Assembly (NCBI RefSeq): GCF_036321535.1
Contig: NC_087436.1
Coordinates: 53,508,001 to 53,572,000 of the forward strand
Source of the DNA: Camelus dromedarius
Taxonomy: Eukaryota
DNA: 64,000 nt
Direction: 5' to 3'
Both the position numbers and the translations under genes were made by a program. The notes beneath the pieces are model-generated. The model was given only the letters and a program-made list of their open reading frames with translations. It searched no databases and had not been told where the DNA came from. Of this stretch, positions 46,016 through 57,400 are shown piece by piece. Every line of letters starts with the position of its first letter. The first letter of the stretch is position 1.

Positions 46016-46314
46016 ACTAATAAGACTAATATGCTAAATATTTGTAGAATAAATACATGAAGAAATGAATGAAATATGCACACATGAATGCAGCCTAATA
46101 TCCCCGTCCCCCCTCCCTTTTTTTTTTTAGCTTCTCAGCAATGGCTTAATATTGAACTTGTATCAGCTTAAATGCCTAAAGCCTTTTTACTATGTGTGCT
46201 GTTAAAGACCATTGAGAGCCTAGTAATTTCTCAAGAGTCCCATTTCCCAGAGGTGGGATTTGGAGTGATTGGGTGTCAAATGCTATTGATACCCCATTCC
46301 CAGGCCCATTTTCT

Positions 46315-47804
46315 TTTTTTCTTTTTTTTTTTTAGTTGAAGTATAGTTGATTTACAGTGTTGTATTAGTTTCAGGTATACACAAAGTGATTCAGATAGAT
46401 ATAGATATAAATATAGATATAGATATATTCTTTTCAGATTCTTTTCCATTATAGTTTATTATAAGATTTTGATTATAGTTCCCTGTGCTATACAGTAGGA
46501 CCTTGTTGGTTATCTATTTTATATATTGTATTTTATATCTCTAATTCTAGACCCCTAATTTATCTCCCCCACCTTTCCCCTTTAGTAACTGTAAGTTTAT
46601 TTTCTATGTTTATAAGTCTGTTTCTGCTTTATAAATAAGTTAATTTGTATCATTTTTTATATTCCACATGTGACTAATATCATATGATACTTGTCTTTCT
46701 CTGTCTGACTTTCTTCACTTAGTATGATTATCTCTAGGTCCATCCATGTTGCAAATGATGTTATTTTATTATTTTTATGGTTGAGTAATATTCTATTGTG
46801 TGTGTGTATATATATATAGATATAGATACAGATATAGATATGTGTGTGCACATATATATGTGCGTGTGTGTATATATATATATATTATACACACTACATC
46901 TTTTTCCAATCATCTGTTGATGGACATTTAGGTTGCTTCTATGTCTTGGCTATTGTAAATAGTGCTGCTATGAACATTGAGGTGCATGTATCTTTTTGAA
47001 TTATAGTTTTTTAAAATTTTGTAAAATCATTATTTTTCTTCTTCCAGTTTTATGGAAATATAGTTGACATACAGCACTGTATACTTTTGGTAGGGGAGAG
47101 GGTGGTAATTATATATATTTTTTTAAATTCAGGTACTGGGTATCGAACCTAGGGCCTCCTGCTTGCTAGGCGCACACTCTAACACTGAGCTGTATGGTCC
47201 TCCCTTGAATTATAGTTTTCTCTGGATATATACCAGGAGTGGCATTGCTGGATCATATGGTAAGTCTATTTTTAGTTTTTTAAGGAATACCCCTATTGTT
47301 CTCCATAGTGGCTACACCGATCTACACTCCCACCCACAGTGCAGGAGGGTTCCCTTTTCTCCACATTCTCTCCAGCATTTATTATTTGCAGACTTTTTGA
47401 TGATGGTTATTCTGACTCATGTGATTGTGGTTTTGATTTGCATTTATTTAATAATTATCCATATTGAGCATCTTTTCATGTGCATATTGGCCATATATAT
47501 GTCTTCTTTGGAGAAATGTCTATTTAGGTCTTCCCATTTTTTGATTTTTTTTTTTTAATATTGGGCTATGTGAGCTGTTTGTGTATTTTGGAAATTAAGC
47601 CATTGTCAGTTGCATCATTTGCAAATATTTTCTCCCAGTCCATAGGTTGTCTTTTTGTTTAGCTTATGGTTTCCTTTGCTGTTCAAGAGCTTGTAAGGTC
47701 CCACTTGTTTATTTTTGTTTTTATTTCTTTTGCCTTGGAGACTGACCTAAGAAAACACTGCTACAATTTATGTCGGAGAATGTTTTGCCCTTGTTCTCTT
47801 TCTT
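46315..47804 (-). mobile_element. 5'-truncated L1 of about 1.5 kb, antisense, containing a nested SINE insertion
   Basis: Poly(T) at left; ORF2-end peptide FATWMDLEIIILSEESQTEKDKYHMILVTCGI; TSD aggcccattttct (46302-46314) / agacccattttct (47805-47817). Confidence 0.92.
47011..47204 (-). mobile_element. Vic-1-type SINE fused to an L1 3'-terminal fragment within one TSD pair
   Basis: Perfect 15-bp TSD ttgaattatagtttt at 46996-47010 and 47205-47219. Confidence 0.85.
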
Positions 47805-52815: not shown

Positions 52816-53042
52816 GTCTTATTGTTCTTTTGAAAGTGATAATTTTTTTCCCTGTGAATGCTTTAAAGATTTCCCTCTGTCTTCAGTTTTCAGTAGCTTT
52901 GCTATGATGTGCCAGACATAATTTTCTTTGTATTTATCCTGATAGAGTCTAGAGCTTATTGACTCTAATGGCTTGATATGTCAGATTTTGAAAATTCTTA
53001 GTCAATGTCTCTCATTACACATATGTTAAAAAGCGAATTTCA

Positions 53043-54467
53043 AGGCATTCTGTCCAAGAAAGGTTTTAGAGTAATGATGATGAAGGTGTTCAGAGAACTC
53101 AGAAGGAGTATAGATGCACAGGGGAAAGTTTTTAGCAAAGAGTTAGAAAATATACAGAATACCGAAACAAAGTTGAAGAACAGAATTACTAAAAAGAATA
53201 ACACACTAGAAGGAACCAAGAATAGACCAAATAAGGCAGAAGAAGGGATTAGTGAGCCAGAAGATAGATTAGTGGAAATCACTACTGCAGAACAGAAAAA
53301 AGAAAAAAGAATGAAAAGAAATGAGGATAGTTTAAGAGAACTCTGGGATGTGAAGCACACTAATATTCACATTATAGGGGTCCCAGAAAGAGAAGAGAGA
53401 GAAAAAGGGCCTGAGAAAAGATTTGAGGAGATAATAACTGAAAACTTCCCTAACTTGGAAATGGAAACAGTCACTCAAGTCCAGGAAGCACAGAGTTCCA
53501 CACAGGATCTACTCAAGAATACACCGAGGCACATAGTAGTCAAATTGACAAAAATTAAAAATAAGGAGAAAATATTAAAATCAGCAAGAGAAAAGCAACA
53601 AATAGCATACAAGAGAACTCCCATAAAGTTATCAGCTGATTTTTCAGCAGAAACTCTACAGGCCAGAAGGGAGTGGCATGATATGCTTAAAGTGATGAAA
53701 GGGAAAAACTTACAACTAAGAATACTCTATCCATCAAGGCTCTGGTTCAGATTTGATGGAGATATCAAAAGCTTCACAGATAAACAAAAGCTAAAAGAAT
53801 TCAGCACCATCAAACCAGCTTTACAACAAATGTTGAAGGAACTTCTCTAGTCATCAAACTACAAGAAGAGAGATGCATGCACCCCAATGTTTGTGGTGGC
53901 ACTGTTGGCAGTAGCTGGGACATGGAAGCAACTTAGATATCCACTAACAGGTAACTGGATAAAGAAGTTGTGGTGTGGGGTGCTACTCAGCCATGGAGAA
54001 GAGTAAATTGGTGCCATTTGCAGCAGTATGGATGGACCTAGAGATCATCGTGCTAGGTAAGGTAAGCCAGGAAGAGAAGGAAGGGTTCCCTGTGATGTCA
54101 CTTATGTGTGGAATCTGGGGAAAAAAAGTGGAGCGGGGGAGAGGGGGGAAGATTAACTTATTTGCAGGGCAGAGATAGACTCACAGATGTAGAGGACAAG
54201 CGTGGTTACGGGGTGGCAGGGAGGGGTTGGGAATGCAGGATTTGCAGATGCTAACTACTGTGTATAGAATAGATAGGTATCAGGGACCTGCTGTGTAGCG
54301 GGGAATTGTGTTCAAAGTCTTATGGTGGCCTCTAGTGGGAAGGAGTATGAGAGGGAATGTTTCTATATGTATAGGTGAACTACTCTGCTGTACACCAGAA
54401 ACTAACACAACATTGTAAATCGACTATACTTCAAATAAATAAATATATAAATACATAATTTTTTTTC
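53043..54467 (+). mobile_element. L1-derived element: 5'-truncated ORF1 joined to ORF2 C-terminus/3'UTR (HAL1-like architecture); 3' part A>G hypermutated
   Basis: ORF1p features (coiled coil, NIHIIGVPE, IITENFPNL, TPRHIVVKL, LSADFSAETLQARREW, ILYPSRL), stop at 53850; ORF2-end homology from about 53868; A-rich tail; degenerate TSD aaaaagcgaatttca (53028-53042) / aaaaagtacatttca (54468-54482); flanks are an older antisense L1. Confidence 0.9.
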
Positions 54468-57400
54468 AAAAAGTACATTTCAGTGTGTAGCTATATACTC
54501 AGTTTCTTCTCAGAGTCCCATATGGTTTGTAGGCTCTTTTTAACATTTCCTATCCTTTCTCTTCTCTAACTTTCTGTCCGAATACAAGCCAACCCTTCCT
54601 TGTGCTGGGACCCCAAAATGTTATTATTTGGTGCCCTTTTCTTCTGATCTTAAATCATTAAAGAAAATAATTCTATCGCCTGCTAAGAAGGTGTTTATAT
54701 CTGACTGCCTCTACCCCCGGTAAAGAGTCTGCGTGTTTCACTTTATTCACCTGGTCAGCTCATGGAGTCACAGCTTCCTCTGGTCCAAATCTCATTTTTT
54801 CATTCCCGTTTTCTTTGATCTGTGGAATTTGATATGTATTTTATTATTTTACTGCCTCTTTAATGAAGCTATGAGTAGAAGAAAAAAACGCAATGTGGTC
54901 ACTCCGCCATGTTTAACAAGAAGTCATGTGTATAATACTATTCAGTGCTGGCAAGAGTGTCATAAAACAAATCATTCTTATAGATTTCTGATGGCAGTGT
55001 CCTTTTTTAAAAAAGTCTTGAAATCTGATTTCTCTTCTGAGAAGAAAGCCTAAATAAATCATGTAAAATTCAAAATTAAGAATGTTTTCTATGCACAAAG
55101 ATATTCACAGTAGCATACTTAACGAAATTTAAAATTTAAATTGACCTAAATACCTAATGATCTGGTACTAGATAAATAAATCGTGGAGCCTACATTTAAT
55201 AAAAAATTGGACAGTCCTTTACAATTGTTTGTAAAGATATGTATTAATATAGATAAATGCTATTATATTATGTTGACTGAAAAGAACAGAATTCTTTTTT
55301 AATTTACAGAAACAAACACAACTCAAAGCAGAAGCAAAAGTATAGAAGAAACATATCCAAATATGGACAATACTTACCTTTGGATGATAGAACAATGACA
55401 AATAGTTCTCTTCCTCTGCACGTTTCTACTTCCCAGTATGCCTAATGAGTGTGTGCTTTCTTAAAATGAGGGAAATGAAGGGAAGGCTATTTTAAATAGA
55501 AGAAACATTATTTCTTTAATTTACATACTATGCTATTAATAATAATATGAAACCCATGTTATTTGTCCAAAATTTCGTATTTCTTTTTAATTCATTGCAA
55601 GTTTTGGATTTTAGTTTAGTTATAAAGATGGAGCATTTTTCAACATACATTTCTTAAAAATAGTGTTTAAGAAAGAATTCTGGACTCACAAGCGTAACCA
55701 ACTCCTGGCACCACCTTCTCTACATTTCATAGAAAACATGTGTTTCGTTTACAATTCAGCCTCAAAATTAATTGACTCAAATTCTGTGCTAATACAACTA
55801 TAAAATGCAATGCCTCAGATAAATATCAACCAAGCACTACAAAGTTTAATTTGAAATGTGTTCTACATTACAGTCTGGTCTCCCTTAATACTGTTTAACA
55901 AATTAAAACGGCAAGTGGCATCATCTGCTAACCCTCTGAGGCAGCAGGAGATACTGGAGTTGCCTGAATTTATCTCTGCTGACATATTCTACAATGTACT
56001 ACAAGACTGTTCTAAGATTGATTACACATCCAAGTTGAACTAAAAGTGATTTTTTTTTTAAGTGGGTTTAGAGATGTGGTATAAAACAAGCACCATTCTG
56101 GTTTTCTGTTTTGAGTGCTTGTCATAAATCTAAAAGAATTGAAATCATTCTTCAGGGAGGGGTTGGGACAGCTACCCATAAATTGTGGAATCTTTGACAT
56201 ATACGTTAACACCAAAGCCACATTGCAGATTCTGAACTTTATTTCTCACTTGAACGGTGAAAATAATGGTGAAATACAAGCTAACAGGATCTAAAAGAAG
56301 GAAACTGATTACCAAGGAACATAACATTTATATGCAAGGAAATAGCCTTTTATAATCTGTTTATGCTCACAGCAACCCTTTTAGCAAAGAGAGAGCCCCA
56401 GGAAAGAAGCAAGAGGGAGGAAAATTCTTTTGTATCTTTCAATTTGGGCTCAATTTACATAGAATGATTTGTCCTGCTTTCCATTGATGGCACGGGGAAA
56501 GACAACTCCACTACGCCAAATCAGTTTGGAAATGAAAGACAAGCATCTGTTTGTTTTACAGATTGATCAGCTTCTTTTCTGATAGCTCAGCCAAGCTGCT
56601 TACAAGCCTTCCACAGCTGCCATTTTGCGCTGCTTGGTGGTACACTCTCTCACATGAAATGAGTTTCCTGATTTCTGTTGCTTGCTTTCTTAGCAAAATA
56701 GTCCTTTTCTATCAGTGTTTTCCAAGTTACTCTATTTGCATAGCTTTATGAATCTCAAAGGAACACACACCACGTAGCATATAAATTAGGAATTTTATAA
56801 TATCCATTCATAGACCTTGATTTATGTCAGGACTTCCATTCAGCTCTATTCTGGGCATGTCTGAAAGCAGTGCAAGAGGTAAGATCTACAGGGCCTAGCT
56901 GAGAAGGCACAAAGGAGAGGTCAGACATGCTCCCAAGGTCAGAATGTCTTTGTGAGGAAGCCACATCATCCAGCTGTGTGTACAGCTGCTGTTGTGAGAA
57001 TGACCAGTGTAACTGTGTGACGCTACTTAATTAAATGTCTCTTGATAATTCAAAAAGTGTCAGTCTGCAACTTGGGACTGCATAATCTTTCTACTTTGCT
57101 TCATTCCAGCCTCATAGGCATCAAAATGAATAACGCAACTGAATAATGCAATTCAGCCCTCTTTCTTTATCTTACAGATAAACCATATTTCTTTCCAAAC
57201 ACTTGGTACATTTAGGCAAGTTTTTTTTTCAATAATAGCCTACAACCAGAATATTAGTAATGCTAAGGATTCTCAAGTAATTTTATAATCATTAGTTACC
57301 TGTGTCCTGTAATGTATATTATGGTATTTCTTACAAAGATGAATAGGATATGCTTTCAAGGACTCATCTCATTTAAAGCATTGATATTAACTATAAGTAC

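Follow-up and report, generated by a model that had tools for sequence, protein, structure and literature searches.

Positions 53043-54467 of the window (the whole 64,000-nucleotide stretch of dromedary DNA analysed here) are a single insertion flanked by target-site duplications (TSDs). The inserted copy is a member of an L1 family with an internal deletion that fuses ORF1 straight to the final ~85 codons of ORF2 and the 3'UTR, and the copy itself is 5'-truncated at 53043, full-length members of the family being ~2.55-2.6 kb. The features of the locus are as follows.

53028..53042, + strand: 5' copy of the TSD, identical to 54468-54482 at 12 of 15 positions
53043..53850, + strand: L1 ORF1, 5'-truncated, stop codon at 53848-53850, with Pfam matches Tnp_22_trimer, Transposase_22 and Tnp_22_dsRBD
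53851..53873, + strand: inter-ORF remnant and ORF1/ORF2-3' deletion junction, placed by the limits of homology to ordinary L1
53868..54374, + strand: A>G hyper-mutated tract, sense strand, ~507 nt, in which 36% of ancestral A are now G
53874..54118, + strand: remnant of the last ~85 codons of L1 ORF2, whose unedited relative L027 resembles human ORF2p
54119..54445, + strand: L1 3'UTR, with 0 A>G from 54375 on
54446..54467, + strand: degenerate A/T-rich tail remnant between the L1 end and the 3' TSD, by direct reading of the sequence
54468..54482, + strand: 3' copy of the TSD, pairing with 53028-53042

The insertion carries the marks of target-primed L1 retrotransposition, namely a TSD, an A-rich 3' tail, a TT/AAAA-type nick site and 5' truncation. 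The 12/15 match between the 15-bp TSD copies was reached by 3 of 2000 shuffles when the 5' copy was anchored at the element boundary, and by 93 of 2000 when it was not. L1 homology begins at 53043, adjoining the 5' TSD copy, and a TT just before that copy gives the site TT/AAAA, which we take to be the usual L1 endonuclease site.

The ORF1 reading frame is uninterrupted over 53002-53850. Homology to ordinary L1 ends on the ORF1 side at 53867-53873 in 28 loci and begins on the ORF2 side at 53866-53881, and at least six other copies (L003, L006, L017, L020, L027 and L039) run uninterrupted through the junction. Because these six copies are unedited, the junction must be older than the editing event proposed below. 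A Pfam search with the C-terminal ORF2 piece returned no match; in a PDB sequence search, the unedited relative (L027:1787-2050) aligned with residues 1189-1273 of the 1275 of human ORF2p (E=6e-23). The former ORF2 stop appears, as read from the sequence, to lie at about 54116-54118, and an ORF listing of L004, made to look for an upstream ORF2, gave only a decayed frame. With the ORF1p domains kept, only the ORF2p C-terminus left and a junction common to its copies, the family has the structure of an ORF2-deleted (HAL1-like) L1.

The initial annotation had read the 3' segment of this copy as the genomic fossil of an ADAR hyper-edited RNA, on the strength of three hand-aligned blocks totalling 123 nt, and our recount of these blocks was identical to the original (25 A>G, 5 C>T, 1 T>G, 1 A>C, 0 G>A). 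For the full tract, we took as ancestral the state held by a majority of at least 75% among at least four of the six closest relatives, all of which have the same ORF1/ORF2-3' junction. Tabulated over all 12 substitution classes, the 97 substitutions at 447 scorable sites of 53868-54380 display the one-strand A>G excess that the blocks had suggested: 72 of 200 ancestral A are now G, as against 3 of 100 T that are now C (Fisher p=1e-11), the remainder being nine C>T, four G>A, three A>T, two A>C and four others. ORF1 (53076-53850), by comparison, has 38 substitutions at 703 sites, with 11 G>A and with A>G at only 9 of 312 A (tract versus ORF1, Fisher p=4e-24), and the tail (54381-54445) has three substitutions, none of them A>G among 22 A. 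Changes other than A>G are no more frequent in the tract (25/447 sites) than the ORF1 background (38/703), and the density of A>G is fairly even along its length, from 3/21 to 10/22 per 50 nt.

Controls set this copy apart from its relatives. With each of the six relatives taken in turn as the focal copy, 4-13 of about 190 A had become G, and in a further nine L1 pieces of the window A>G numbered 1-21, amounting to no more than 9%. Against ordinary L1 3' ends, all 13 comparisons agreed, with G in this copy and A in the comparator at 65-79 sites and the reverse at 7-14. The sense-strand G>A clusters typical of APOBEC3 are absent, G>A having occurred at 4 of 83 ancestral G.

Since the changes run from AT to GC and raise the GC content across the tract from about 0.36 to 0.48, they might have arisen in the genome after insertion, through GC-biased gene conversion, transcription-associated asymmetry or conversion by a G-rich donor. 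However, gene conversion is strand-symmetric, while here T>C trails far behind A>G and T>G was seen once. The other substitution classes keep to the ORF1 background rate, the bounds of the tract correspond to a junction internal to the element, and no donor was found, the best paralogue having 70-76% identity. Such post-insertion processes are therefore an exceedingly unlikely source of the tract.

Nor was the G state found elsewhere in the genome. At the 72 sites, A predominates in every one of the 20 comparators, G occupying only 3-11 positions in each, and the best of 39 genomic matches to the tract has 70-76% identity; among these matches and comparators, we found no other genomic copy bearing the G alleles, and the G state is thus ancestral to none of the copies found. 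The closest paralogue, L040 (76% over 260 nt), was considered as a co-edited relative and rejected, with G in common at 3 of 35 covered sites. The alleles do recur in independent genomic DNA from other individuals: in four public DNA runs (four organism labels, three studies), contigs of single-copy depth match the tract with 0-2 differences wherever they span it, some bins of the tract having no low-depth contig; this is evidence from assembled contigs rather than raw reads, and one run may be the assembly's own sample. By a word index, the stretch is present in 20 runs from 10 studies.

The state of ancestral CA dinucleotides also speaks to the age of the G alleles. The 31 in the tract now read CA (21), TG (5), CG (2), TA (2) and CC (1), so that CA>TG makes up 5/9 of the C>T in the tract, and the four C>T said to sit directly 5' of an A>G in the blocks were found there on recount. 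This CA>TG decay marks the G alleles as old genomic DNA. A G-rich state ancestral to a rare L1 subfamily or recombinant, or else an assembly or sequencing artefact, could draw on the G-rich polypurine stretch of mammalian L1 3'UTRs and on the ambiguous alignment within 54118-54150. Yet the mostly-A state of every comparator, the 39 genomic matches all at or below 76%, the reproduction of the tract in contigs of four runs from three studies and the decay just described leave such an origin scarcely credible.

The bases neighbouring the changed adenines offer a further line of evidence. The edited fraction by 5' base is T 21/43, A 37/76, C 7/32 and G 7/44, giving the order T = A > C > G, and the 5' neighbour order of ADAR1 is U = A > C > G. 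Depletion of 5' G, first proposed from the blocks, is real over the whole tract (G versus non-G, p=0.0012). The stricter claim that no changed A follows a G stands within the blocks, where 7/7 GA adenines are intact, and fails over the whole tract, where the seven of 44 given above have changed. On the 3' side, there is no neighbour preference in the tract (T 21/51, A 24/75, C 12/30, G 15/39). Enrichment of 3' G is often reported for ADAR, and here the fraction before G does not differ from the 36% overall (p=0.85). Because classical ADAR1 work is said to have found no 3' preference, we do not regard the missing 3' G enrichment as decisive.

A 5' A/T preference is not specific to ADAR, since DNA polymerase eta has the same preference in its WA hotspot. 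Strand-specific error-prone DNA synthesis at or after integration, for example by a polymerase-eta-like enzyme that places G opposite T at WA motifs while synthesising the second strand or an extended repair patch, would share this preference, and second-strand synthesis during target-primed reverse transcription would put its errors on the sense strand. Several observations nonetheless make it unlikely. First, 36-38% of all A are changed, which to our knowledge is far above any known single-pass polymerase error rate. Second, transversions are frequent in polymerase-eta-type mutation at A; despite the WA bias, this mark of polymerase eta and somatic hypermutation is lacking, transversions making up 5 of 77 changes at A here and 11 of 121 in a second hyper-mutated copy, L056 (A>G:A>T:A>C = 72:3:2 and 110:4:7, respectively). 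Third, once CpG decay is allowed for, A preceded by C is edited clearly more often than A preceded by G, a misfit to a WA-only rule. Finally, the tract stops at the boundary of RNA homology, that is, at the deletion junction, and not at the end of the insert.

This boundary was located by change-point analysis, in which the best interval is 53868-54353, with 71/186 A changed inside versus 10/355 outside. Support extends over 53863-53875 for the start and 54353-54392 for the end, the 3' bound being loosely placed. The start coincides with the deletion junction at 53866-53873; towards the other end, 0/24 ancestral A changed over 54378-54442. Thus the tract is bounded, as had been claimed, with A>G at only 9/312 in the ORF1 part and none in the last ~70 nt, and it lies inside one TSD-flanked retrotransposition event. 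These bounds bear on misincorporation by the L1 reverse transcriptase, in which C placed opposite template A, for instance from a skewed dNTP pool, would give sense-strand A>G only in retrotransposed DNA. Misincorporation would be expected over the whole cDNA, whereas the first ~70 nt copied (54375-54445) and ORF1 were spared to the extent just given; it would need a rate of tens of percent per site, and it leaves the start of the tract at the junction unexplained. We consider it very unlikely.

A motif screen for further copies, crude and very insensitive, yielded a second hyper-mutated L1 3' end in the same genome, L056 (C26:24691875-24692633). Here, 110 of 291 A are now G and 12 of 163 T are now C, and the edited fraction by 5' base is T 37/69, A 51/107, C 13/52 and G 9/53. 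The two copies have 34 G sites in common versus 27.1 expected, about the chance number; their G positions thus differ, which argues for recurrent editing rather than one edited master. A TSD was sought for L056 and is not supported, the best local match (12/13 with one gap) being reached by 334 of 2000 shuffles. The screen also returned a third, shorter copy that is probably hyper-mutated. Other clusters were set aside: that of L085 falls on alternating positions of a (TA)n run and was treated as microsatellite change, those of L084 and L086 are found where homology gives out, and the matches L053, L059, L065 and L088 contain many transversions from partial alignment. For the match L091, no alignment was obtained.

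Taken together, ADAR hyper-editing of an L1 RNA that was then copied into the germline is the best reading of this locus and, in our judgement, probably the correct one. It is supported by the one-strand spectrum, the depletion of 5' G, the bounds, the non-ancestral G alleles, their presence in independent DNA and the recurrence at a second locus. The footprint is that of ADAR in its one-strand A>G excess, on which all 13 ordinary L1 agree, its dense and bounded cluster and its 5' neighbour order, and a conversion of 36-38%, spread rather evenly over the tract, is in keeping with promiscuous editing along a long duplex. The position of the tract inside a TSD-flanked, A-tailed, 5'-truncated insertion with an unedited ORF1 part argues for an RNA intermediate. 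Beyond this, we infer which enzyme acted, that it acted on RNA and what the duplex partner was.

Under this reading, the RNA of the non-autonomous, ORF2-deleted L1 family would have paired, over its ORF2-derived 3' ~0.5 kb, with antisense L1 3' sequence. ADAR would have deaminated about 36-40% of the sense-strand adenosines to inosine, the L1 reverse transcriptase, acting in trans, would have treated inosine as G in the course of target-primed reverse transcription, and the 5'-truncated cDNA would have become fixed in the germline between the 15-bp TSDs. We propose an ordinary L1 3' end as the duplex partner, given that the tract and the homology to ordinary L1 share their starting point. No inverted repeat was found in six family loci beyond palindromes of 23-44 nt in two of them, nor in three family loci extended to 8.3 kb, so the RNA duplex is purely something we infer; a partner acting in trans, or one upstream that 5' truncation had removed, would escape such a search.

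Besides the absent 3' neighbour preference, the non-specific 5' preference, the loosely placed 3' bound and the lack of an inverted repeat, two observations count against the ADAR reading. On the one hand, it does not account for the last ~70 nt of this copy, which are free of A>G; L056 is edited right to its end. On the other hand, a cell-culture study that applied Sanger sequencing to >2.5 kb of L1 reporter RNA detected no edited sites (PMC5224506).

If the ADAR reading holds, its consequences extend beyond this copy. A germline L1 with an ADAR-type footprint, together with a second independent copy, indicates that edited RNA can enter inherited DNA via L1 reverse transcription. ADAR editing is usually treated as an RNA change that leaves the genome untouched, and APOBEC3 is the deaminase known for hyper-mutation fossils in retroelements. 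That the tract begins at the deletion junction of the family also affords a rare, if indirect, glimpse of the pairing partner of an L1 RNA. More tentatively, we suggest as a possibility that sense-antisense L1 duplexes of the germline or early embryo are edited by ADAR, that the inosine-rich RNA is a usable template and that editing has repeatedly been made heritable in this way. Were this so, each event would at one stroke yield an L1 or other retrocopy segment that differs by about 15% from its source, a divergence that could let copies evade homology-based silencing or seed new subfamilies, and mammals would hold a genome-wide class of such copies, of which two to three members are visible here.

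The locus can be compared with several known systems. HAL1 elements are 'half-L1' non-autonomous L1 derivatives, and the family described here, likened to them by structure only, has similarly kept ORF1, lost nearly all of ORF2 and been amplified (at least seven copies with one junction), but differs in keeping the last ~85 ORF2 codons and a normal 3'UTR. ADAR hyper-editing of long dsRNA is known in inverted-repeat SINE and L1 transcripts and in the 'biased hypermutation' of RNA viruses. Our tract resembles it in the one-strand A>G, the tens of percent of A affected in a bounded tract and the depletion of 5' G, under-representation of an upstream G being described as the ADAR signature in one paper (PMC2873906). 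It differs in that the footprint lies in inherited genomic DNA, rather than in an RNA compared with its own DNA, in that the 3' neighbour preference is absent from the tract, and in that the duplex partner is conjectural.

The 'DNA editing' fossils of APOBEC3 are G>A clusters reported from LTR elements, L1 and Alu (PMC4866542, PMC2873906). As here, clustered mismatches of a single type became fixed through germline integration of an edited intermediate and were recognised by setting a copy against its relatives; in contrast, our tract is A>G, not G>A, and its presumed substrate is an RNA template rather than minus-strand cDNA. One of these papers leaves ADAR unmentioned and names A-to-G only as the opposite direction, excluded by its filter (PMC4866542). 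[quoted passage not shown] With copies such as these, that open question becomes a countable genomic signal. Finally, avian leukosis/RAV-1 reports of the 1990s reportedly ascribed A>G hyper-mutated proviruses to the dsRNA adenosine deaminase. The likeness is that ADAR-edited RNA was reverse-transcribed, with inosine becoming G in DNA; those proviruses, however, were exogenous retroviruses in infected cells, whereas the copy described here is a non-LTR L1, inherited in several organisms and made by target-primed reverse transcription.

The window copy (window 53043-54467, plus strand) is a single L1-derived insertion, in which ~20 nt of inter-ORF DNA separate the ORF1 stop from the final ~85 ORF2 codons, with the 3'UTR after these. 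Its ORF1, with three ORF1p Pfam domains (Tnp_22_trimer, Transposase_22 and Tnp_22_dsRBD), and its flanks are as follows:

53043-53850, plus strand: 5'-truncated ORF1, frame still open
53028-53042 and 54468-54482: 15-bp target-site duplication flanking the insertion, 12 of 15 positions matching

Such a match was equalled by three of 2000 shuffles when the 5' copy was anchored at the element boundary, and by 93 of 2000 when it was unanchored. Because the duplication flanks the whole insertion, the unedited ORF1 and the mutated 3' part came in through one retrotransposition event.

Homology to ordinary L1 ends at 53867-53873 on the ORF1 side (28 loci) and starts at 53866-53881 on the ORF2 side, and this ORF1|ORF2 deletion junction is crossed uninterrupted in six other copies (L003, L006, L017, L020, L027 and L039, hereafter the six relatives). 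The host of the window copy is therefore a non-autonomous, ORF2-deleted L1 family, ~2.55-2.6 kb at full length (5' region, ORF1, ~20 nt inter-ORF, last ~85 ORF2 codons, 3'UTR), and since at least seven copies have one junction, the family multiplied in non-autonomous form. In the unedited relative L027, positions 1787-2050 match residues 1189-1273 of the 1275 in human ORF2p (E=6e-23); this ORF2 remnant lies in the same frame as ORF1, downstream of the ORF1 stop. At window 53976, between alignment positions 53975 and 53977, the window copy is without ~13 TATAT-rich nt that all six relatives keep, a small deletion of the ordinary kind at a (TA)n run.

Substitutions were polarized against the six relatives, scoring columns where at least four had a base and at least 75% of these agreed.

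Substitutions in the window copy relative to the six relatives
53868-54380, tract: 447 scorable sites, 97 substitutions; A>G at 72 of 200 A, T>C at 3 of 100 T, C>T 9, G>A 4, A>T 3, A>C 2, four others
53076-53850, ORF1: 703 scorable sites, 38 substitutions; A>G at 9 of 312 A, G>A 11
54381-54445, tail: 52 scorable sites, 3 substitutions; A>G at 0 of 22 A, T>A 2, C>T 1

The A>G excess distinguishes the tract from ORF1 (p=4e-24), and within the tract A>G from T>C (p=1e-11), while divergence of all other classes is no higher in the tract (25/447 sites) than in ORF1 (38/703). When each of the six relatives was taken as the focal copy instead, 4-13 A>G changes were found per ~190 A, and nine other L1 3' pieces in the window carry 1-21, at most 9% of their A. 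In every one of the 13 ordinary L1 3' ends compared, 65-79 sites have A where the window copy has G, and 7-14 have G where it has A. The initial annotation had described a one-strand A>G excess from three blocks; our recount of these was identical (25 A>G, 5 C>T, 1 T>G and 1 A>C, with four C>T immediately 5' of an A>G and all seven GA adenines unchanged), and the excess extends over the full tract. The strand asymmetry (72 A>G versus 3 T>C) contradicts GC-biased gene conversion or transcription-associated asymmetry as its source, as do the tract bounds below, and both explanations fail. An ancestral G-rich L1 subfamily, which the annotation had listed for checking, is excluded: all 20 comparators are mostly A at the 72 sites, with G at only 3-11, and the best of 39 other genomic matches to the window copy has 70-76% identity, so that G is the derived state, peculiar to this copy.

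Fitting two change points by likelihood to the 541 ancestral A sites placed the tract at 53868-54353 (71 of 186 A changed inside, 10 of 355 outside), with support of 53863-53875 for the start and 54353-54392 for the end. The start thus coincides with the deletion junction at 53866-73, and beyond the end none of the 24 ancestral A at 54378-54442 has changed, which, with the 9/312 of ORF1, bears out the bounded tract first described. Misincorporation by reverse transcriptase does not fit these limits, as the whole cDNA should have been affected, yet the first-copied 70 nt and ORF1 are normal.

The changed fraction of ancestral A varies with the 5' base (T 21/43, A 37/76, C 7/32, G 7/44; 5' G versus the others, p=0.0012), with no effect of the 3' neighbour in the tract (T 21/51, A 24/75, C 12/30, G 15/39). 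The claim that no edited A follows a G was thus too strong, although the depletion of 5' G that it implied is real. Five of the nine C>T changes are CA>TG, and of the 31 ancestral CA dinucleotides, 21 are still CA, the others having become TG (5), CG (2), TA (2) and CC (1). This agrees with the proposal that CA turned into CG, with subsequent decay of the resulting CpGs, from which CA>TG changes are expected. This pattern makes the G alleles long-standing genomic DNA. Some CA edits have probably reverted through CG>CA, which would put the true C-context rate above 22%.

The G alleles also recur in other DNA. By a word index, 20 runs from 10 studies, under four organism labels, contain at least half of the stretch's words. 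Four public sequencing runs (X2, X4, X7 and X13; three studies, four labels) were compared as Logan contigs, all at single-copy depth:

X2, 53830-54041: 0 differences
X2, 54012-54411: 1 difference
X4, 53838-53956: 0 differences
X4, 54016-54382: 1 difference
X7, 54016-54412: 2 differences
X13, 54016-54411: 0 differences

These are assembled contigs rather than raw reads, and the sample behind one run may be that of the assembly itself; that they reproduce the tract with 0-2 differences excludes an assembly or sequencing artefact. The sole listed difference inside the tract, at 54347 (A in the window and X13, G in X2, X4 and X7), reflects reversion of an edit or else ordinary variation.

Further cases were sought with two crude IUPAC motifs of a conserved L1 3' block (R at A positions, G required at three), a very insensitive screen that gives no frequency. 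Motif 1 had 422 matches, of which 30 loci were examined, and motif 2 had 15, all examined. Two loci stood out, the remainder being ordinary or uninterpretable:

L056, G000:C26:24690656-24693687 (insert ~G000:C26:24691875-24692633), L1 on the minus strand: 5'-truncated ordinary L1 3' end, ~760 nt
L061, G000:C8:63594804-63597835 (~1400-1780 of the locus): young-looking L1 3' end

In L056, A>G affects 110 of 291 A, against T>C at 12 of 163 T, G>A 10 and C>T 9; the 5' neighbour order is that of the window copy (T 37/69, A 51/107, C 13/52, G 9/53), the changes span the whole insert up to its A tail, last 60 nt included, and the best paralogue again has 70-76% identity. Over 218 common A columns the two copies have 34 G sites in common (three forced by the search motif) versus 27.1 expected (P=0.03). 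As to whether such copies would share G positions, they differ, and with this near-chance overlap they are independent events rather than offspring of one edited master. No target-site duplication is supported for L056, the best local match being equalled by 334 of 2000 shuffles. Its flanks are unusually CpG-rich, and its A tail is interrupted by six consecutive G, which could reflect editing of the poly(A) or have arisen later. L061 is a probable shorter, sparser, partial editing tract: 24 of 95 A changed to G (three forced by the motif) over ~250 nt equivalent to ~54152-54400, and 1 of 133 elsewhere, with T>C at 8 of 167 and a best paralogue of 84% identity. L085 (G000:C7:55805794-55808821) was rejected, its A>G at alternating positions being a microsatellite change from (TA)n to (TG)n, which mimics editing and is a trap for automated A>G cluster screens.

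The neighbour rules of ADAR, an editing plateau of ~50% and the spectrum of polymerase eta serve here as background. We consider it likely, as the initial annotation proposed, that the window tract is an ADAR-type RNA-editing footprint in inherited L1 DNA. The near-exclusive A>G on the RNA-sense strand with 36-38% of A converted, the 5' neighbour order T = A > C > G, the confinement to part of the retrotransposed RNA and the independent recurrence at a second locus together fit a long RNA duplex that ADAR edited promiscuously and whose inosines reverse transcriptase copied as G. Polymerase-eta-like synthesis has a WA bias in common with the tract, but is at odds with a 36% per-site rate, with the scarcity of A>T and A>C (5/77 in the window copy, 11/121 in L056) and with a bound at an RNA-homology junction.

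The ORF2-deleted family has no internal inverted repeat, so under ADAR editing the duplex partner would have been either a separate RNA acting in trans or a more 5' sequence of a longer transcript, removed when the copy was truncated at 53043. Because the start of the tract is also the start of homology to ordinary L1, the evidence suggests that the partner was an ordinary L1 3' end in antisense, L1 fragments being most often of this type. This mechanism leaves the unedited last ~70 nt without explanation. An inverted ordinary L1 3' end also lies ~7 kb upstream (46312-46799 and 47205-47388, minus strand); its spectrum is normal (5 of 197 A changed to G), and it could pair with the edited copy in a long transcript today.

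Retroviral proviruses with A>G hyper-mutation have been reported. Our search of the full-text literature, where subscription journals are mostly outside coverage, turned up no published case of a germline L1, or of any other retrocopy, with an ADAR footprint. According to a 2016 review (PMC4982230), any contribution of ADAR editing to the evolution of Alu subfamilies "has not yet been determined", and a reporter study detected no editing in >2.5 kb of L1 RNA (PMC5224506). We hold with good confidence the reading of an ADAR-type footprint written into inherited L1 DNA, in at least two independent cases in one genome. The nearest known genomic phenomenon is the "DNA editing" (G>A) that APOBEC3 leaves in retroelements (PMC4866542, PMC2873906).
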